This document shows, piece after piece, positions 35,167-58,480 of a stretch of DNA of 64,000 nucleotides. The stretch spans positions 512,001 to 576,000 of the forward strand of contig CAXWPJ010000012.1 of NCBI GenBank assembly GCA_963664115.2. The letters run 5' to 3'. The notes beneath the pieces are model-generated. The model ran no database searches and was not told where the DNA came from. It was given only the letters and a program-made list of their open reading frames with translations. This stretch comes from Terriglobia bacterium. GTDB lineage: Bacteria; Acidobacteriota; Terriglobia; 20CM-2-55-15. Both the position numbers and the translations under genes were made by a program. Numbering within the stretch: the first letter of the stretch is position 1; each line of letters starts with the position of its first letter.

Positions 35167-36415
35167 ATTCAGATCAACCGGTCGATGCAACACCTGCGTT
35201 TAATGTCTCTGCCGGATTAGCGAAGTCCAGCGTCTCACGAGGTCGCCCGTTGAGCTTCCTTGCGATCATATCCAAATGCTCCTGTGAGTGAACCGACAAG
35301 TCCGTACCTTTAGGGAAATACTGTCGGAGCAAACCGTTCGTGTTTTCGTTCGAACCCCGTTGCCAGGGACTCCTCGGATCGCAAAAGTAAACGGCAATGT
35401 CGGTGGCCAGAGTGAACCGTTTGTGATTGGCCATTTCCAATCCGCGATCCCAGGTCAGTGTTTTATAGAGTTCGGTCGGGAGTTTGTCTGCGTGTTCGAT
35501 CAGCGCGTTGATGACGGTTTCGGTTTCCTTATTCGGAACCTTCACCCGCATCACGTACCGGGAGAAACGTTCGACCAATGTCGCAATGTAGGTGTTGTTC
35601 GAACCCGCTATGAGATCCCCTTCCCAGTGTCCGGGGACCGCGCGATCTTCAACCGAAGCCGGGCGCTCACGGATCGATATCAGATCCGGGATCTGCCCGC
35701 CACCCCGGCCTTTGCGACTGGCATGCTGGGACCGGCGAATCGTGCGTTTGGTCCGTAGATGCTGTGTCAGTTCTTTCTTCAGAGCCCCGCGGGCCTGGAT
35801 GAAAAGGCTGCGATAGATCGTTTCGTGTGACACGTAAAGTGACTCGTCGTCTGGATATTCGCGTTTCAGCCAACCCGCAATCTGTCGCGGTGCCCAATCC
35901 TCCCGGAGCTTCTCTTCGACGATCCCGCGTAAGCTGGGATAGCGGATCAGTCGACATCTCTTCGGGCGGTGAGCCCGTTCCCATGCGCGTTCATCCGCCT
36001 CCAACGCTCGATAGTTATCATAGCCCCCATTGCGACCGATCTCCCGACTGACTGTGGAGGGTGTACGCGACAGCGACTCGGCAATTGAACGGATCGATCC
36101 CTTGGCGGCAATGCCTCGGGAAATCTCTTCACGCTCGGCGAGGGTCAGCGCCCGCTTAGAGCGGCATCGTGTCCTGGGACAGATTCCACCATACGGTGCG
36201 ATCTGACCATAAACCGAAGAGCCCTCCTTTCCGAACACACGTCCGATCGCTTTCAGACTCTCTCCCCGCTGCCAGCGAATCCACACCTCGTCTATATCGG
36301 CGAGTGTGTAGCCTCGCCGCACCCGGTCTTTACTCTGTTTCTTCCGTCGTTTCTTACGCATACACTCCACCTCCTCCTTTTAGGTACAGTGTTGCATCGA
36401 TCTGTTGAGACCACC
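35167..36415 (-). mobile_element. IS30-family IS (transposase 35174-36370)
   Basis: GHWEGDL, TWDRGLE and WQRGSNENTNGLLRQYFPK motifs; imperfect 27-bp terminal IRs. Confidence 0.95.
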
Positions 36416-36418
36416 TCG

Positions 36419-36712: not shown

Positions 36713-36752
36713 TTCTCAAGGTCCGAGAAGATGATTTCTCAGGACTTGAGAA
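36713..36752 (+). repeat. 40-bp dif-like array site, intact
   Basis: TTCTCAAGGTCCGAGAAGATGATTTCTCAGGACTTGAGAA. Confidence 0.95.
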
Positions 36753-41098: not shown

Positions 41099-41531
41099 AG
41101 GGGAATTAGGGAACCGGCACACGTTCCTTCAGTTCGGTGGCGCCGGCGATGGCCGTTTGGCGTGCCCTCATACGAAAACAACAACCATAACGGAGGCTCC
41201 GTCCCTTGAGACTCCGGCCACCCTCTATCCGTTCGGCCTCTGAATTTCCTCGTGCGGAATTCTTTCGAGCAATTTTTTCAACTTCAGTAAAGGGATCATG
41301 GCGAAGTTGAAAAGCCTCTACATTCGGTTGATGGCCTGCGAAAGAAAGTGCTTCCCGACCCGAAAAGACCCCCCCAAAAAAAACTGGACGAATTACAGAT
41401 ATTAGGGATATTGTTTCAATCACAAATAACAGAATCTTTCCAATGTACAAATTTCTGAACGTATTCCGGCCGGAATTACGTCCTGTTTGGTTCATAGGAG
41501 CGTCGACAAACGCGAGTCTAAGGAGGACCCT

Positions 41532-43164
<1,633 letters not shown>

Positions 43165-43169
<5 letters not shown>

Positions 43170-44654
43170 CCCGTCAGAGCATTTCGCACAGAATCCGCTG
43201 AAAAACTAAGAGACACTTTTCTAATCAGAACGATCTGAAGGAGGATCGAATGAGTGAGAAAGTGTCGGCAGAGAATCGGGTACGGGAGATTCGTCGGAAG
43301 ACGAGGAAGAAGTACTCGTCGGAAGAGAAAGTGCGGATTGTGTTGGAAGGACTGCGAGGTGAAGAGAGCATCGCAGCGCTGTGCCGACGCGAAGGGATTC
43401 CGTCAAATTTGTATTACCGGTGGAGCAAGGACTTCCTGGAGGCGGGGAAGAAACGGCTGGCTGGGGACACGAAGCGGGAAGCGACATCGAGCGAAGTCAC
43501 TGAATTACGCCAGGAGAACGAACAGCTGAAGCAGGTGGTAGCTGAAATACTGCTAAAGAATCGTTTTCTGAAAAAAACGTTGAACGTAACGGACTCCGAG
43601 AGCATCGATATATGAGGCAATCGGGATCTGAGAAGCTGGAGACGATCCGAGTGGTGGAAGACTCGGAGTTGTCGGTGACAGCGACCCTCCGGGAGCTGGG
43701 CGTCCCCCGCAGCACGTTCTACGGTTGGTATCGACGATACAAAGAGCGTGGCGCAGCCGGCTTGTTAGATCGGCATTCCGGCCCCGGCTTCTGCTGGAAC
43801 CGGATTCCGGGACCGGTGCGGGAACAGGTGGTCGAAACCGCGTTGAACCACCCGGAAGCCTCACCGCGGGAACTGGCCTGGCAGATCACCGACACCCAGG
43901 ACTACTTCATCTCCGAATCCAGCGTGTATCGGATTCTGAAGAGATGCGACCTGATCACCAGTCCCGCATACATCGTGATGACGGCCAGCGATCACTTCCA
44001 GCAGCCAACCCGGCGTGTGAACGAACTCTGGCAAACTGATTTCACTTACTTCAGGGTCGTCGGTTGGGGTTGGTACTACCTGTCGACCGTGCTGGACGAT
44101 TACTCTCGCTACATCATCGCCTGGAAGCTCTTTCAAACCATGGCCGCATCTGACGTTCAGGACACGCTGGACGTTGCACTACAGGCGACAGATGTCGGAC
44201 AAGTACAAGTCCGGCACCGACCGCGATTGTTGAGCGACAACGGCCCCTGCTACGTATCGCACGAACTCAAAGACTATTTACAACGTCGTGGTATGGAACA
44301 CACCCGGGGTGCGCCCTATCACCCGATGACACAGGGCAAGATCGAACGCTATCACCGTTCGATGAAGAACGTGGTCAAGTTGGAACACTACTATTATCCG
44401 TGGGAACTTGAGCAGGCGATCGCGCAATGGGTCGAACACTACAACCACCATCGGTATCACGAATCTCTGAACAACGTGACACCGGCTGACGTGTTCTTCG
44501 GGAGGGATCAGCAGATCCTTGCACGTCGTGACCAGATCAAAAGAAAAACGCTGGCTCGACGCAAAATCGAGAACCTTAGGATTGGAGTGGTATAACTTCA
44601 AAACCGTCTCTTAGCTAAATGGTCTTTTTGTCCGAATTATTCTGACGACGTACA
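43165..44654 (+). mobile_element. IS3-family IS, full copy 3
   Basis: Same ends; orfA 43250-43615, orfB 43612-44595. Confidence 0.95.
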
Positions 44655-46027
44655 CACGTGAGTGTGAACAAAAAGGAGTCCGAGATGAAGAATAAGACGA
44701 TTGCAGTCGATCTGGCAAAGAATGTTTTTCAAATTGGTGTTTCAGATCGCCCCGGGCATGTAGAGAAAACCTATCGTTTAAGTCGGGCAAAGTTTCTGGG
44801 GTTCTTTGCGAACCAGGAGCTGGCGACCGTGGTGATGGAAGCCTGCGGATCCGCCCATTACTGGGGCCGGAAGATCCGGGAACTGGGACACACGGTCGTT
44901 CTGATCTCGCCGCAGTATGTGACGCCCTACGTCAGGCGCAACAAGACCGACCGTACGGATGTGAAGGGATTGTTGGAAGCCTATCGCGACAGCGATATTC
45001 ATCCGGTCCCGATCAAGACGCTGGCCCAACAGCAACTGACCTCATTGCATCGAATCCGTTCGGCGTGGATGCGAACCCGAACCGCACGGATCAATACGGT
45101 GCGGGGGTTGTTACGGGAGTTTGGCTACGTGATCCCGACCGGAGCGGATCATCTGGTGCCGGGGGTAATGGAGCTGATCGAAGATGCAGATGTCGTCATC
45201 CCCAGTGTCGTTCGGGAGATGTTTCACCAGGTGTGTGGCGAGATCCGTGAATTGGAATCTCGCATGCGATCGGTGGAACAAGAGTTGAAGACGCTGGCTC
45301 GGCAGATGCCTGAGGTCGCGCGTCTGACGTCGATTCCCGGCATCGGCCTGTTAACGGCAACGGCAATGGTGGGGTTTGTTGAAAACATCAAACGATTCCG
45401 AACGTCCCGCCATTTTGCCAGTTATCTGGGACTCACACCCCGGGAACATTCCAGTGGCAACCAGCGACGCATGGGCCGGATCAGTAAGCAAGGCGATCGT
45501 TACCTCCGGATGCTGTTGGTTCATGGGGGCCGTTCCCTGTTGTGGAGTGCCCATCGAGAGGGCGCCACACCGACACCTCTCCAGCAATGGGGTCTCCAGA
45601 AACACGAGTTCCGCGGACACAACAAGGCAATCGTTGCACTGGCCAACAAGTTGGCGCGTCGCGTGTGGGCGGTTTGGAACCGTGACTGTGACCATCAGGC
45701 CCGGTATCAGGCGGCCTGACCCGGAACAGTCGGAATATCTTTTCAGCGAGCTGCGATGAGGTTCGAGATGATGGCGTACCGGTCAGACCGGCGCGGGGCA
45801 ACGCCGACAAGTCCTTTGGCCCTTAGAGGCCGTTATTTTATCGGTTGGCTCCCCGCGCGCAAATTTCCATCATGGCCCGGAACAATACAGTTCCACTTTT
45901 GAGGCCGAAGATACGGGTGCAGTCGACTAGCTACTCACCTCGTAACTTCTAGTCAGTCCTGCTGAATGCATTTTGCCGAAGAAAGCTGACGGGAGAGCTG
46001 CGCCTACTTGACAGAGGAGTCCAGATA
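44655..46027 (+). mobile_element. IS110-family (IS1111-type) element, left end lost; transposase 44685-45719
   Basis: AVDLAKNVFQ, MEACGSAHYW, KTDRTD and SSG motifs; 300-bp 3' noncoding region ending GGAGTCCAGATA. Confidence 0.9.
45760..45930 (+). ncRNA. Candidate bridge/seek RNA of the IS1111-type element (limits approximate)
   Basis: Stem GCGCGGGG/CCCCGCGC enclosing CAAGTCCT (reverse complement of array-site AGGACTTG); second hairpin contains AGATAC, matching the IS end junction. Confidence 0.6.
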
Positions 46028-46038
46028 CAGGACTTGAG
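46028..46038 (+). repeat. Array site, right part, abutting the IS110 end
   Basis: CAGGACTTGAG. Confidence 0.8.
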
Positions 46039-46099
46039 CGGTTAGATCATCTACCGTGCGGACTGACTTCCCGTAGTCCAGTTCTAGGAATTGTCTCGG

Positions 46100-47041
46100 T
46101 CACGACTCTATCGCGAAGTCCATCCCCAATAAGCTCTCGCGCAGGAGAGCAGTGTCGCCAATATCATCGCCATATAGGACACCAATGACGGCGGCGTGGA
46201 GAGCACGAAATCGCGCCATGATTTGGATCGGCTTTTCGACCGCTCCATAGCTATCCCAAAATACTTCGCGACCCTCGGGTGGCAGAAAACCGAACGCAAT
46301 AGCCAAATCCATACTGGGGCTTCCTAGGTGGATGTCGCCCCAGTCAATCACGCCGCTTGGCAGTCCAAAGTTGTCCACAAGGATATGCTCCGCTGAAAAA
46401 TCGCCGTGTGACAATGTGTTCAACCGCGGTTGAAAGTCCGATGACATCTGTTCAACGATCCGTTCCCAAGGTGAAACGTCAGCAACCAATCCCTTTCCTC
46501 GAATCGTCAGAAGACTTGAGAGCAACTGTGGAATACGTTTTCCCATGTCAGCTCGGCCAAATTTATCTCCCGGAATTTCCAGATCTCCCGGATCAATGGC
46601 ATGTAGAGTTGCTAAGAAATTCGCTAAGGGAGCAGCAAGTTCCTTCCTCTGCTCTCGCGTCAATCCAACACTCAGTGCCGTGGTGCCTGGAAGAAAGCGA
46701 TAGCCCGCAAACGGCCAATCATACTCTTGTGTTGGCTTACCAACCCATCTTGGTACTGGGATAGGGAAAGGCAACTGAGCTGCAATTCGAGGAAGGACGC
46801 GAGTTTCCGTCTGCAGCAGTTCCACCGCTATCTCTCGGCGAGGAAACCGGAAAACCCAAGTCCTGTTCACTACGTAGGCCGTATTGTCCCAACCCTCACC
46901 TAGAAGTTGGATATGCGCAGGTCGAAGCTCCGGGAATTGGCTTTCGATCAGACGAACGGCCGCATCTGGCATCACGATATGCTCAGGTAGCCAAGGTTTA
47001 CCGGTAGGCATTACTGAAGAGAGTACCAGTCTGGAGTTCAA
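46100..47041 (-). CDS. Aminoglycoside phosphotransferase-like kinase (start probably 47011 or 46972)
   Basis: GEGWDN, VFRFPR, HGDFSAEHIL and IDWGD motifs; single-gene interval. Confidence 0.9.
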   Translation of the reverse strand: MNSRLVLSSVMPTGKPWLPEHIVMPDAAVRLIESQFPELRPAHIQLLGEGWDNTAYVVNRTWVFRFPRREIAVELLQTETRVLPRIAAQLPFPIPVPRWVGKPTQEYDWPFAGYRFLPGTTALSVGLTREQRKELAAPLANFLATLHAIDPGDLEIPGDKFGRADMGKRIPQLLSSLLTIRGKGLVADVSPWERIVEQMSSDFQPRLNTLSHGDFSAEHILVDNFGLPSGVIDWGDIHLGSPSMDLAIAFGFLPPEGREVFWDSYGAVEKPIQIMARFRALHAAVIGVLYGDDIGDTALLRESLLGMDFAIES

Positions 47042-47074
47042 CGTCCGAGAAGATGATTTCTCGGGACTTGAGAA
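47035..47074 (+). repeat. 40-bp dif-like array site, intact
   Basis: AGTTCAACGTCCGAGAAGATGATTTCTCGGGACTTGAGAA. Confidence 0.95.
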
Positions 47075-47697
47075 TCATTTTCAAGGTCGGCAAATGGATT
47101 CGGCCAGATCAATCCGCCCCTTCCTGTTGGTCAAAACCCTTGAGCAGATCCTTGAAACTTTTTCAGACGTTCAGCGAGGCTGAGCGAATGGTCCGCACAC
47201 AGGAAGTATCCTTGATTGATAACCTCAGCTCGGTGGCTGGGTTCCTCGCTCGAAGGAACGAAAGCGACATCACAGCAGATGGGCTTGTCGCAATCTGAGC
47301 AGACGACCGTATTGTCACGGAGACGTGTTTCCTCCCCACGGGAAGAGCAATGGCAGTAACGGTCCATTTCTTGGACTCCGATATTGCATATTGCTGTCCA
47401 TGATCGAATTGAACCGTAACCGCTTGATATCGTGAGTGATCCTGCATTAGTAGGTGGCGGGCACATAGTCATGGTTTTGACGAAATCGCAGGTATTCGTC
47501 AGGGCCGCAACATTTTGACTGAATCTGGCGCCTTAAAACTGGCCAAAACCGTGACCCGGGCGGATGCTCGGCAGCGTGACGGCAGGACACGTCGCATTTT
47601 ACTGTTTCAGTTGATGGACCGTGGCTTGGGCCTCGCACTTCCACAGTCGGAATTTTAGTTTCCTTCCGTCAAAGAACGAGAATTACCCTGAGTTCAA

Positions 47698-47737
47698 TTC
47701 TCAAGGTCCGCGAAGATGATTTCTCGGAACTTGACCT
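47698..47737 (+). repeat. 40-bp dif-like array site, variant
   Basis: TTCTCAAGGTCCGCGAAGATGATTTCTCGGAACTTGACCT, then INIVLNWFEELKDRVPVP* remnant. Confidence 0.9.
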
Positions 47738-47814
47738 CGGAAATCAGGGTACGGGCACCCGATCCTTCAGTTCTTCAAACCAGTTGAGGACGATGTTGAT
47801 TTCGCCCGACTCAG

Positions 47815-47904
47815 AATCGAGAACCTTAGGGCTGGAGTGGTATAACTTGAAATCCGTCTCTTAGAAAGACAGCCCTTTTGTCCGAATTACTCTGACGACG
47901 TACA
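47815..47904 (+). mobile_element. Solo right end of the IS3-family element
   Basis: AATCGAGAACCTTAGG...TCTGACGACGTACA. Confidence 0.85.
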
Positions 47905-47941
47905 AGCCTCCGAATCACCAAGCCGAACGTGGAGAACCGAA

Positions 47942-48337
47942 ATGAACGACCAATTTGTACCGACAGACGATTTTGCCGAAATCGAAGAAATCGCCAATAG
48001 CGACAATGACAGACCGGTCCTGATGGTTAACTTGAACAAATATTTCGGAGGAGAATATCCAAACGGGACTATCTATAAAGATTACATGAAGGCATTGGAT
48101 GTCTTGTTGGAACAACACCTTCGGTCGAAAATACTTTAGCGAACGCCAGTTTATGGCACACCCCTTGGCACACAGCCTTTAGATGAGATTCTCGGTATAT
48201 GGTATCCGTCCCACAAGGCATTTCTTGCTCTAAAGGGTCAGGGAAAGGCTTCAGAAGAAAACTTCCGCTTGCGTAATTTGGCTGTGGAAAATGCCGTCGT
48301 TCATAGATGCCCAGAGGATGGTATTCCCAAGCCATAG
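47942..48337 (+). pseudogene. DUF1330-like protein, frameshifted
   Basis: PVLMVNLNKY in one frame and WYPSHKAFL in another. Confidence 0.6.
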
Positions 48338-48445
48338 TTAGCGAAAAGTTGAAGCGGTAGCCGCTGTCACGGTTGATAAAGGATTCGACGCCGCTAAACT
48401 TGACAAGGTGACGACTTGGGAATTGGATTACTGCCGCCTATCAAA

Positions 48446-48485
48446 TTCTCAATGTCCGAGAAGATGATTTCTCGGGACTTGACAC
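48446..48485 (+). repeat. 40-bp dif-like array site, intact
   Basis: TTCTCAATGTCCGAGAAGATGATTTCTCGGGACTTGACAC. Confidence 0.95.
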
Positions 48486-48563
48486 CGCCGTCATCGCAAG
48501 TGCCAAGCGTTGAAACGAAGAAATGCAGATAGGATGGTACGGTTTCTCAGCCGGAGCATCGCC

Positions 48564-49313: not shown

Positions 49314-49338
49314 AAGATGATTTATCAGGACTTGAACT
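49314..49338 (+). repeat. Array site, core plus right arm only
   Basis: AAGATGATTTATCAGGACTTGAACT, followed by a degenerate kinase tail. Confidence 0.85.
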
Positions 49339-49468
49339 CGAAAACCAGGGGATCGGCTCCCGTTCCTTCAATTCCTAGAACCAGTTTTTGCCCCTCCATG
49401 GAGGTGGGGTTCCGGGAGCGCCAATTAAGATTGCGTCATTTGCTCGATAGGCAGCTAAATTAAGAGTC

Positions 49469-52526: not shown

Positions 52527-54127
52527 GAGTTATAACCGAATCTGGTGTTTGAGGGATTGAATAAGAGCGGCGTATCTGGTTGATTTGTTGTGACAAAACT
52601 TCAAAGCAACCATAGGAGATACGCCACTGTGAGCAAGAGTAACGTGAATGGACCGGAAGGTCGAGAAACGATTGAGGATCCAGTAACAGAACTACTACGA
52701 GTTGGGGCACAGCAACTGATCCAACGCGCAGTGGAAGCCGAATTGGCAGAGCTGCTATCCCAGCACGGTGGCCGGCGAACTGAGACAGGAAACGCCGGGG
52801 TGGTACGCAACGGTTATCTGCCGGAACGCGAACTGCAGACGGGATTGGGTCCGGTAACAGTCCAAATCCCGAAGGTCCGTGCCAAGACGGGCGAAGCTGT
52901 GACGTTCCGATCGGCCCTGGTACCACCGTACATTCGGAAGACGAAGTCGCTGGAAGCAGCGGTGCCGTGGTTGTATTTGAAAGGCGTTTCCAGCGGCGAG
53001 ATGGGTGAGGCCCTAAAAGTTCTTGTCGGTCCCCAGGCGCAGGGTCTGTCGGCGAGCACGGTATCGCGGTTGAAACAGGTTTGGGGCGAACAGTACCGCC
53101 TCGGATGCGAGGAGCGTTTGGATGCAGATCGCTGGGTCTATGTCTGGGCCGACGGCATCTACAGCGGACTTCGGGCGGAACAAACCAAGTTGTGTGCATT
53201 GGTCGTGATCGGCGTGAATGAACGCGGAGAGAAGCGTTTCCTGGCGATCGAAGACGGTGTACGGGAATCGACACAGAGTTGGCGCGAGGTCTTGTTGAAG
53301 CTGAAGTCCCGTGGGATGAATGTTCCGAAGTTGGCCATCGGTGACGGTGCGATGGGGTTCTGGGCCGCACTGGAGGAAATCTATCCCGAGACACGTCAAC
53401 AACGTTGCTGGATGCACAAAGTCATGAACGTCCTCAACTGCCTGCCCAAGTCGGTCCAGGCGAAGGCGAAACAGGCCCTGCACTCGATCTGGCAGGCCGA
53501 GACGAAGGCAGACGCCGAGAAGGCATTCGACTTGTTCATTGAAACCTATGAACCGAAGTATCCGAAAGCCACACTCTGCCTGCAGAAAGACAGAGAGGAA
53601 CTGCTGGCCTTTTACGACTTTCCGGCCAAGCACTGGCAGAGCATCAGAACGACGAATCCCATTGAGTCGACCTTTGCCACCATTCGACACCGAACGAAGC
53701 GATCCAGAGGTTGCCTGACACGGGATGGCATGCTGCACATGATGTTCAAACTGGGCCAGTGCGCTGAGAACAATTGGCGACGATTACGAGGATTCGATGA
53801 TCTGAGCAGAGAGTAACTGCTGGCCTTTTACGACTTTCCGGCCAAGCACTGGCAGAGCATCAGAACGACGAATCCCATTGAGTCGACCTTTGCCACCATT
53901 CGACACCGAACGAAGCGATCCAGAGGTTGCCTGACACGGGATGGCATGCTGCACATGATGTTCAAACTGGGCCAGTGCGCTGAGAACAATTGGCGACGAT
54001 TACGAGGATTCGATGATCTGAGCAAGGTAATCATCGGAGTGAAATTCAACGATGGTGTCGAAGCGACACAAGTCGATCAGGCCGCCGCTTGAATCAATCT
54101 CCTAAACACCACTTTTGACAATAACTC
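52527..54127 (+). mobile_element. IS256-family IS, copy 2, with internal 216-bp tandem duplication
   Basis: Same element as 10125-11509; 9-bp TSD TGAAAATCA at 52518-52526 and 54128-54136. Confidence 0.95.
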
Positions 54128-56083: not shown

Positions 56084-57265
56084 TCAGGAAGAATCGAATC
56101 CCCTCCTTTCAAGTGGCCACCGGATCTGGGCCGCGGTGAGCCGCTCCCCGATCGTCATGGCCGCGCCGCAGTTGGGACAGCGCCAGGAGTTGGGGCGTGC
56201 ATCGGTCGATCGTTCAGATGTCTGAGTCGCAGTAGCACCTCCTAACCAATGCCGGCACAAAGGCAGCAGTGAACCACGATGGCGGGCTGAGAGAAAACCA
56301 AAGAACCGGATGCGGACGAAGCGGCGCGGCAAGGTGTGGGTGAGAAAGCGGATGAGAAACTGTTCAGCCGGAAGCGTCATGTTGCGGGGTGCGTGCTTGT
56401 GCCGGGAGTCTTTCCAGCGAAACGTAACCTGACCGTCCTGGAGATCGACGAGGCGGTGGTTGGAGATGGCGACCCGATGTGTGTAACGGGCCAGATAGTG
56501 GAGTACGTGTTTGGGCCCGCCGAATGGACGCTTGGAGTAGACGACCCAGTCGATGTGATGGAGCGGGCCGATAAAGGCCGCGAATCGTTTCGGGTCGTTT
56601 AATGGGGCCAGATCGCCATAGAAACGTAGCTCTCCCCGCTTGAACGATCGCCGAAGCCGGTCCAGAAACTTACCCCGAAACACTTCACTGAGCACCTTCA
56701 CTGGAAGGAAGAACCGATGGCGGGCCCGAATCCATCGGGTGTGGTCGCCCGACAGGCCACCGGCAGGAACGACACAATGGATGTGGGGATGATGACCCAG
56801 CGTCTGACTCCAGGTATGGAGCACGCTGAGCACGCCAATCTGGGCGCCCAGATGTTTCCCGTTGGCGGCCACTTCCTGCAACGTGGCCGCGCTGGCCCCA
56901 AACAGCAGGGCATAGATCACACGTTTGTTCTGATAAGCCAACCGCGCCAGGGGTTGGGGCAGGGTGAAAACGACATGCACGTAGCGAGTCGGCAGTAACT
57001 CCCCGGTGCGATCCGTCACCCACTGGTCACGGGCACGGGTCTGACACTTCGGGCAATGCCGATTGCGGCACGAGTTGTAGGAGAGGGCGCGATAGTCGCA
57101 GTTCGATTCCGAGCATCGGTCCCGGTGGCCTCCCAGCGCCGCGGTGCGACACTGCTGAATAGAGTTGAGGACGCGCAACTGACCGCCATCGAGCCGGCGA
57201 TGCGCCACCAGGTCGGAACCATGACGACGGATGATGTCGGCCACCTCAAGGGTGGGCCGGGTCAC
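56084..57265 (-). CDS. IS91-family (Y2/HUH) transposase with zinc-binding domain
   Basis: YNSCRNRHCPKC, HVVFTLP, HPHIH and YLARYTHR motifs. Confidence 0.95.
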   Translation of the reverse strand: MTRPTLEVADIIRRHGSDLVAHRRLDGGQLRVLNSIQQCRTAALGGHRDRCSESNCDYRALSYNSCRNRHCPKCQTRARDQWVTDRTGELLPTRYVHVVFTLPQPLARLAYQNKRVIYALLFGASAATLQEVAANGKHLGAQIGVLSVLHTWSQTLGHHPHIHCVVPAGGLSGDHTRWIRARHRFFLPVKVLSEVFRGKFLDRLRRSFKRGELRFYGDLAPLNDPKRFAAFIGPLHHIDWVVYSKRPFGGPKHVLHYLARYTHRVAISNHRLVDLQDGQVTFRWKDSRHKHAPRNMTLPAEQFLIRFLTHTLPRRFVRIRFFGFLSARHRGSLLPLCRHWLGGATATQTSERSTDARPNSWRCPNCGAAMTIGERLTAAQIRWPLERRGFDSS

Positions 57266-58146
57266 CGCAACCCGACTTCGCTTGAATCCAATAGCGGGAT
57301 CTGATCCAGCGGATTCTTTATGGCCTGTAAGTGCCGGTTCGACAGATGCAGATACAGCGTGGTGTGCTTCAGGTCAGCGTGGCCCAACAGGAGTTGAATC
57401 GTGTAGAGATCGGTCCCGTCTTCCAACAGGTGCGTTGCGTAGCTGTGTCGCAGGCTGTGAGGTGAGATCCGCTTGCGGAGAATCGCGCGCTCACGCGCTT
57501 CCCGGCAAGCGCGCCACACCATCTTCGTGGAGATCGGTGCATCGACCCGACGGCGCCGTTTCATGCCCGGAAACAGGTAGGTCTTCGGCTTCATCCAGCG
57601 CGCGTACTGGCGCAATGTCTCCAGTAGTCGTGGACTCAGCGGCACGGCCCGGTCCCGTCCGCGTTTCCCACCCCGGATCTGAATCACCATCCGTGCGCTG
57701 TCGATGTCCTCTATTTTGAGGCACACCAGTTCACCGCGACGCATCCCGGTGCCGTAGAGCGTCATCAGCATCGCCCGCTGCATCAACGTGCGACACCCAT
57801 CGATCAATCGGGCCACTTCCCCACGAGAGAGCACGACCGGCAATCGCCGATCCTGTTTCGGCATCGGTGTGTGTTCGAGCAGATAGGTCCGATTCAGTGT
57901 CTTAACGAAGAAGAAGCGTAATGCCGAGACGTGTTGCGCCACTGTCCGGGCCGACAACCCCCGATCTCGAAACAGGTGCACCTGGTACTGCCGGATCTCG
58001 TCGGCTCCCAATCGGTCCGGCGCTCGGCGGAAATGTCGGGCAAAGTTCCCCAGGATTCTCAGGTAGGTCTGTACCGTTCTCGGAGCGTAATTACGTCGCT
58101 GGAGCTCGTCCAGCATCAACCTGCGGTTGGGCGTCATTCGGATCAT
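57262..58146 (-). CDS. Tyrosine recombinase with N-terminal SAM-like domain, coupled to the IS91 transposase
   Basis: YGTGMR, HSLRHSYATH and LLGH...TTLY catalytic motifs; 4-bp overlap with the transposase. Confidence 0.95.
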   Translation of the reverse strand: MIRMTPNRRLMLDELQRRNYAPRTVQTYLRILGNFARHFRRAPDRLGADEIRQYQVHLFRDRGLSARTVAQHVSALRFFFVKTLNRTYLLEHTPMPKQDRRLPVVLSRGEVARLIDGCRTLMQRAMLMTLYGTGMRRGELVCLKIEDIDSARMVIQIRGGKRGRDRAVPLSPRLLETLRQYARWMKPKTYLFPGMKRRRRVDAPISTKMVWRACREARERAILRKRISPHSLRHSYATHLLEDGTDLYTIQLLLGHADLKHTTLYLHLSNRHLQAIKNPLDQIPLLDSSEVGLR

Positions 58147-58256
58147 AGAGATATCCCTCCTGTATCTCTACAACCCGATACCCTCCCTCAGTCAGGCCCG
58201 GTCCTTCACCACGCACGCAAAGCGTCCGCCGCGCCAGCGGCTTAGTTCAAACGACA

Positions 58257-58273
58257 TTGTCGGACGTTGAGAA
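58257..58273 (-). repeat. Inverted left arm of the array site
   Basis: Reverse complement TTCTCAACGTCCGACAA. Confidence 0.85.
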
Positions 58274-58292
58274 AAGGCCTGGGAAATGGGGG

Positions 58293-58332
58293 TTCTCAAG
58301 GTCCGAGAAGATGATTTATCAGGACTTGAACT
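58293..58332 (+). repeat. 40-bp dif-like array site, intact
   Basis: TTCTCAAGGTCCGAGAAGATGATTTATCAGGACTTGAACT, then INIVLKWFEELKERVPMP* remnant. Confidence 0.95.
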
Positions 58333-58480
58333 CGAAAATCACGGCATCGGCACCCGCTCCTTCAGTTCTTCAAACCACTTCAGGACGATGTTGATCCGGG
58401 ACCGCCTCGCCCCACCGATGTCAGCTCTGCCAGCTGGAACAATCGTGATGAATTCTTCGCCGGCTGGGTGATGCCCACTT

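Follow-up and report, generated by a model that had tools for sequence, protein, structure and literature searches.

The window, i.e. the whole 64,000-nt stretch of DNA analysed here, contains an IS1111-type insertion sequence that lacks its left end, directly adjoins an IS3-family element and is followed by the right arm of a palindromic repeat of about 40 bp. The features referred to below are the following:

36713 to 36750, + strand: intact copy of the target repeat, given as an example (nhmmer profile)
43165 to 44654, + strand: IS3-family element (Pfam HTH_Tnp_1 and rve; ends)
44655 to 46027, + strand: IS1111-type element, 5'-truncated (blastn against its own genome, 98-99% identical copies; junctions)
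44685 to 45719, + strand: DEDD recombinase/transposase, 344 aa, frame intact (Pfam, motif positions)
45750 to 45923, + strand: predicted bridge or long seek RNA of about 174 nt, its two ends joined in an outer stem (22-homologue alignment, consensus fold)
45808 to 45816, + strand: predicted target guide 1, complementary to the top-strand letters that follow the insertion point (AGGACTTG) (covariation)
45833 to 45842, + strand: predicted target guide 2, identical to the top-strand letters that precede the insertion point and the first base beyond it (TTTAT|C) (covariation)
45867 to 45872, + strand: CCATCA, complement of the left end TGATGG and also 3' strand of an RNA helix (family-wide comparison)
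45909 to 45914, + strand: AGATAC, likely donor-side guide, equal to the element's last five bases plus the first target base (covariation)
46013 to 46027, + strand: right subterminal inverted repeat AGAGGAGTCCA and terminal GATA (sequence)
46028 to 46038, + strand: right arm of the target repeat (downstream DNA shared with G000:C6:24229 and C11:58407)

The 344-aa protein matches PF01548 (E 6e-11) and PF02371 (E 3e-26) and carries the residues D9, E52, D89 and D92 as well as S257 within GLxPxxxSSG. It therefore has the hallmark of the IS1111 group, a DEDD transposase of 330-350 aa with the motif GL-P----S(t)G. The nearest named transposase belongs to the ISKpn4 family (46% identity), and the named relatives stem from Terriglobia MAGs. 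As is also typical of this group, the larger non-coding stretch lies 3' of the transposase gene (308 bp, 45720-46027, versus about 115 bp upstream in intact copies).

Intact sister copies, such as the one at C12:332441-333898, are about 1,458 bp long, and comparison with them showed that the window copy lacks its first 83 bp or so. In the intact copies, perfect subterminal repeats of 11 bp lie 8 and 4 bp from the ends, the left partner being TGGACTCCTCT; counted alternatively as 12 bp with one mismatch they lie 7 and 3 bp from the ends, in line with the IS1111 rule of 11-13 bp at distances of 7 (or 6) and 3 bp. TTGACA (46008-46013), which abuts the right subterminal repeat, probably provides the -35 box for a promoter at the circle junction. 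In the window the element terminates at 46027 with …GAGTCCAGATA. The first-pass annotation had extended it to 46038, and positions 46028-46038 have to be reassigned to the target site; it was right that the element's right end abuts the right arm of that site, with GGAGTCCAGATA directly before CAGGACTTGAG. Uninterrupted sites at G000:C6:24229 and C11:58407 precede the same downstream DNA as the window copy does. An APH-family phosphotransferase gene (PF01636; 46100-47041, - strand) lies between two repeats and has the same flanks on C6 and C11.

On the other side, both the left subterminal repeat and the left half-site are absent and the IS3 element (43165-44654) directly adjoins the remaining edge. 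The earlier proposal that the IS3 had removed them thus holds for the loss and the adjacency, while the IS3 as its cause is plausible: an IS3-linked deletion is the simplest reading. None of four complete IS3 copies in the same genome has an obvious target duplication, so that the missing duplication at the window IS3 is not diagnostic. The open reading frame of a collagen-like repeat protein (41487-43169) obtains its stop codon from the IS3 end, and the protein is therefore probably truncated. The window copy of the IS1111-type element is likely immobile in cis but could supply protein and RNA despite its truncation.

In its own genome, blastn retrieved seven additional near-full copies at 98-99% identity, and fragments. 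Mapping of the insertion points, a check advised in the first-pass annotation, revealed that nearly all copies use one and the same base; the refuting outcome named there, insertion of other copies elsewhere, thus did not materialize. Seven of the eight left ends of this type follow a left half of the repeat that ends in TTTAT, each having its own outer flank; of 11 right ends, 10 stand immediately before C(A/G)GGACTTGA, giving the insertion site TTTAT|C(A/G)GGACTTGA. The right-end count refers to the exact terminal sequence; six more rows, found only with a mismatch, were left out. The eighth left end (C3) lies within an IS256-like gene and is preceded by …TCTAT, and the remaining right end, from a diverged relative, stands before CGGACGTTGA, which is the other arm read backwards. 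No target base is duplicated at insertion, and the joined flanks restore an uninterrupted repeat. Such site- and orientation-specific insertion without target duplication is characteristic of the IS1111 group. TTTAT is present at all 7 array sites that carry an insertion and at 32 of the 133 that are empty (Fisher p 9e-5). This excess agrees with the prediction from the guide TTATTTTATC, and it may arise from insertion itself converting that base.

Some copies deviate. The right flank of the copy at C10:272k fits the guide at 5/7 positions, a fragment at C12:18.9k has a different second loop and is still located at CAGGACTTGA, and a fragment on C7 ends outside any repeat. Three copies (G000 C3:6354-7811, L064 and L015) have one flank in a repeat and the other in an IS256-like gene, unrelated DNA or the opposite arm; these are possibly half-match insertions or element-driven rearrangements. 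At G000 C10:422017-425328 an IS1111 copy is interrupted at the 3' edge of the RNA by an insert of about 1.85 kb with a 7-bp repeat on both sides, and the edge of this insert precedes another right-end fragment at C5:206488. In the window, an exact 216-bp tandem duplication occupies the end of an IS256-family transposase gene (53591-54022).

A shared site would also be seen if a single insertion had been duplicated along with its flanks. The assembly does contain duplicated segments (nine pairs of sites have both flanks in common), and L007, L008 and L010 share a single left flank. However, the outer flanks differ at all 7 array left and all 10 right junctions, by which this explanation is refuted, and two other runs hold further right junctions with new flanks; we consider a duplicated insertion hardly conceivable.

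With a strict pattern, we found 133 copies of the target repeat in the element's own genome, and an nhmmer profile recovered 222 loci, 175 of them near full length and mostly arranged in co-oriented clusters. The window alone carries 19 sites or half-sites, all on the + strand. Among 41 genomes searched, the strict pattern gave 93, 43, 10 and 1 matches in four genomes of the same genus, one each in two genomes of another genus and none in the other 34; the reversed control yielded none. Over 143 sites, the centre of the repeat reads AGATGAT in 111, with ATGTCGT or hybrids in the minority. An IS30-family element lies at 35170-36416 of the window and also on G000 C12, C2, C10 and C4, and two relatives of about 76% identity precede the opposite arm.

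The motifs of the non-coding region named in the first-pass annotation are all in place: GCGCGGGG at 45791-45798, CCCCGCGC at 45851-45858, CAAGTCCT at 45808-45815, TTATTTTATC at 45833-45842 and AGATAC at 45909-45914. Guide/target covariation, which it had suggested to examine, was assessed with homologues from genome scans, metagenome scans and relatives. The set comprised 54 elements with 21 guide types, after exclusion of seven duplicate or re-added own-genome loci and seven without a readable RNA region. In the permutations, each target class was represented by one guide type and two registers were allowed for observed and shuffled pairs alike; the classes are related by descent, so that kin are not independent. 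Guide 1 fitted the right flank of its own element at 6.26 of 7 bases as compared with 3.59 after shuffling (12 classes, 0/100,000). For guide 2, set against the left flank and the first base beyond the insertion point, the values were 4.7 of 6 and, after shuffling, 2.71 (8 classes, 7/100,000). Both guides therefore covary with their flanks, and the region has two target-matching segments with the top-strand match first, as required of a seekRNA or bridge RNA.

Individual pairs illustrate this behaviour. ACACATGTCC occurs with |CGGACATGTG and TAGCAGCCC with |CGGGCTGCTA; the segment CAAGTCCT varies among the 21 guide types and fits each element's own right flank, and is hence a guide and not the invariant scaffold that it could have been. 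TTATTTTATC, noted at the outset as similar to the site, behaves as the second target guide: it follows single-letter changes of the target, with guide TTTTCTC at TTTCT|C (L036, L045) and TTTAAC at TTTAA|C (L001). The guide CAACGTCCG/TCTTTCTC is carried by 11 elements in G002, and every one of them stands before CGGACGTTGA, the repeat's opposite arm; close relatives with other guides are inserted in unrelated sequences that fit their own guides. There are misfits: the left flank of L064 is not a repeat, the right flanks of L015 and L072 fit the guide at 4/7 each, and L044 has guide AAGTCCGG/TTTTGTC yet resides at a TTTAT|CAGG site. In a protein tree (n=25), the elements inserted in the repeat fell into two well supported groups aimed at the right arm and two separate tips aimed at the opposite arm, with an unresolved base; the right-arm groups may share one origin.

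The repeat might instead be chosen mainly by its hairpin or cruciform shape or by a bound protein, the RNA match being secondary. All six full-length IS30 copies of more than 99% identity were found by blastn in the centre of the same repeat, which points to a general hotspot, and a target stem-loop adds to the specificity of ISPpu10, as described in 10.64898/2026.03.19.712850. Against this, close relatives with other guides enter unrelated sequences fitting those guides, and guide variant, arm and orientation go with the letters of the RNA. We regard selection by shape or a bound protein as very improbable. Insertion fidelity and guide covariation together argue for what the first-pass annotation had envisaged, a natural RNA-guided recombinase aimed at this repeat. 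It is very likely that the window element is a left-truncated IS1111-type insertion sequence whose sisters enter at one fixed base of the repeat, a base probably found with the predicted 3' RNA.

The consensus fold of 22 homologues contains 44 pairs, nine of them with double changes. An outer stem (about 45750-45923) encloses a multiloop, and the two variable strands of the target hairpin, unpaired in this fold, correspond to the guides. The UGGCC…GGCCG scaffold recurs in a second hairpin, which has CCAUCA on its 5' side and unpaired AAGAUACGG on its 3' side. Rfam gave no match at E<=1 over 43000-48500, and the fold of the single sequence was no better than shuffles (z -1.25). In that single-sequence fold AGATAC is paired; in the consensus it is unpaired in the multiloop just 3' of the second GGCC/GGCC hairpin. 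The initial description of a hairpin that holds AGATAC was accordingly right in position and not in structure. Contigs from four RNA runs (two studies) cover parts of the element, and such contigs are no proof of transcription.

Within the clade, AGATAC, CATCA and the element ends are essentially invariant, and we therefore compared more distant IS1111 elements. To 14 distant IS1111 plasmid loci, selected by us from homology matches, we added L012 and four members of the clade. Only the inverted repeats were used to locate the ends; L135, one of these 19, had no such repeats and was dropped, and L070 and L075 were left out. In an alignment of the 18 non-coding regions, the five letters in the column of AGATA were those with which the respective element ends in 18 of 18 cases (eight end types; 4/200,000 shuffles over types); the leading one or two of them fall within the conserved repeat. 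The letter that follows was the first target base in 16/18 and the first left-end base in 10/18. The match of AGATAC to the end junction, noticed at the outset in this one copy, thus extends across diverse IS1111 elements, and AGATAC is likely to be a genuine guide on the donor side, its letters being those of the right junction after integration. For the left end, the segment before the second hairpin was complementary at 5.0 of 6 bases versus 4.14 when shuffled (380/200,000; eight types, best of three registers), which makes CCATCA a weaker candidate for a second donor guide. Donor guides matching the ends, as in bridge RNAs of the IS621 type, would accordingly be present, more clearly for the right end (18/18) than for the left. 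A tracking of left-end base 6 by CCATCA/TCATCA within the clade was considered and rejected; position 6 covaries with the 5' arm of the RNA.

These observations bear on a different reading in which only the target loop guides, the protein reads the ends at the subterminal repeats, and the AGATAC and CCATCA matches are structural or vestigial. An 82-nt peak RNA was enough for transposition of ISEc11 according to PMC11187229, and module 2 of the RNA may therefore be dispensable. AGATAC and CATCA are as invariant as the ends within the clade, which thus offers no test, and CCATCA is paired in the consensus fold, its variable base following the 5' arm of the RNA. By contrast, RNA letters equal the end exactly in all 18 elements with eight right-end sequences, and they follow the first target base in 16/18; so tight a tracking of the ends is unexpected of a vestige. 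On balance we think it unlikely that the target loop alone is read.

In the mechanism that we favour, the element would be excised as a circle in which its ends abut (AGATA|TGATGG), and a promoter driving recombinase and RNA would arise at this junction. Such circles and junction promoters are known for the IS1111 family, and the family RNA is bound by the transposase and required for excision and insertion alike (PMC11187229). In DNA contigs (four sets), no end-to-end joint was among the 15 joints listed of 20, and contigs drop rare forms. The RNA would comprise two modules with the common scaffold guide-UGGCC...GGCCG-guide-CGG. The partner of AAGUCCU in module 1 would be the top strand to the right of the cut, and that of UUUAUC the bottom strand to its left; in module 2, AGAUAC would bind the bottom strand at the right end, and CCAUCA probably the left end. 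Two recombinase-binding modules on one RNA would then join target and donor as in IS621, with reversed guide order and no shared core, and the DEDD/serine recombinase would exchange strands without duplicating a target base. Module 2 reads AGATA|C, the integrated right junction, and not AGATA|T, the junction of the circle. The last letter of AGAUAC, its C, is therefore likely to come into play once strands have been exchanged, or while the element is being excised; only then would it form its pair, like the handshake pairs of IS621 described in PMC13626964.

The repeat itself appears to be a place of DNA exchange. Of the 143 sites, 34 pairs have one 100-bp flank in common and the other different, and the nine pairs mentioned above share both; since sharing differs between the two sides, DNA has been exchanged at or next to the repeat. 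A 316-aa tyrosine recombinase (L082:1190-2140; G000:C5:52189-53139) lies between two inverted ATGTCGT-type repeats, both of which are followed by the start of a Ser/Thr-kinase-like gene, and it is a candidate for the enzyme acting on the repeat. A search at E<=1e-40 did not recover it from G002 or G003, which have 93 and 43 sites, and eight loci homologous to it have no repeat site. Given that all six IS30 copies sit in the centre of the repeat, IS-mediated rearrangement rivals a dedicated recombinase as an explanation. Tyrosine recombinases of 292-294 aa that adjoin sites were discarded, as they appear to be passengers of IS91-like elements. One of them (294 aa) is followed in the window by a gene which we take to be IS91-like (57262-58146 and 58248-58330), beside an inverted half-site and a full site, and a 293-aa relative is present in six identical copies, mostly near sites. 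The same stretch of about 60 bp follows many repeats (in the window 47737-47800, 49338-49400 and 58332-58400); on the minus strand it presumably resembles the 3'-terminal part of a gene for an acidobacterial Ser/Thr kinase (…NWFEELKERVP), which suggests that kinase genes may be recurrent cargo beside repeats.

Literature searches returned no paper on this element or repeat and no described system matching the repeat. We tentatively propose, believing it somewhat more apt to fail than to hold, that the repeat serves an undescribed system of this Terriglobia genus, other than an integron, as the recombination site at which gene cassettes are shuffled, that IS1111 lineages were re-programmed onto it more than once, on both arms and with single-letter guide variants suited to the variants of its sequence, and that a true IS1111 donor loop reads the integrated junction across a mismatched core. 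The class of mechanism has been known since 2024, and attC and REP repeats were already known as IS1111 targets. What we describe is a well-supported new example of this RNA-guided mechanism, aimed at a high-copy repeat with shuffled flanking DNA, to which the element points. The 21 guide types, at 51-100% protein identity, form an unusually clean natural re-programming series, from which the positions of the guides and their tolerances can be fixed for a compact recombinase. The comparison with the element ends provides sequence evidence on a point open between the seekRNA and bridge RNA papers, namely whether IS1111 RNAs also read the element ends, and the donor-side prediction, AGATAC and its last base, is directly testable.

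Among known systems, the IS1111-attC group (ISKpn4, ISPst6, ISPa25; ISPa62-family annotation) comprises the best named transposase matches (46-48%). It resembles the element described here in its 3' non-coding region, subterminal repeats, lack of target duplication, repeated palindromic site with a C after the insertion point and the same second RNA module (L126-L128). In contrast, the target here is about 40 bp long, the guides are different and the host is Terriglobia-related. attC sites are defined by an AAC/GTT core; the base frequencies of the 133 sites show no such fixed core, and the repeat does not qualify as attC. A gene at C9:714590, which we take to be IntI-like, has no repeat site within 2.5 kb. 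The architecture established experimentally for ISEc11, ISKpn4 and ISPa11 in PMC11187229 is the same, with the top-strand guide of the ISEc11/ISPa11 seekRNA located 5' of the bottom-strand guide and the two overlapping at the insertion point, and the predicted RNA is close to its long form of 145-170 nt. The account of these elements in PMC11187229 gives the RNA no donor role, whereas covariation supports a donor-side guide in the RNA predicted here. Donor-binding letters in the multiloop were already predicted for IS1111 in PMC11208160 from manual inspection of a few elements, and its figures and supplements may contain similar alignments. With the bridge recombinases IS621 and ISCro4 (PMC11208160; PDB 8WT6, 9T56) the element shares a DEDD plus PF02371 protein (E 3e-10, 4e-10) and probably the division of the RNA into a target and a donor module. 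Unlike in these systems, the RNA lies 3' of the gene, the guide order is reversed, the predicted donor guides are located in a multiloop and no core is shared, the left end beginning with TG while the target continues with CA/CG. An identical core dinucleotide in donor and target, absent from the clade, is shared in several distant relatives (for example L130, L132 and L133).
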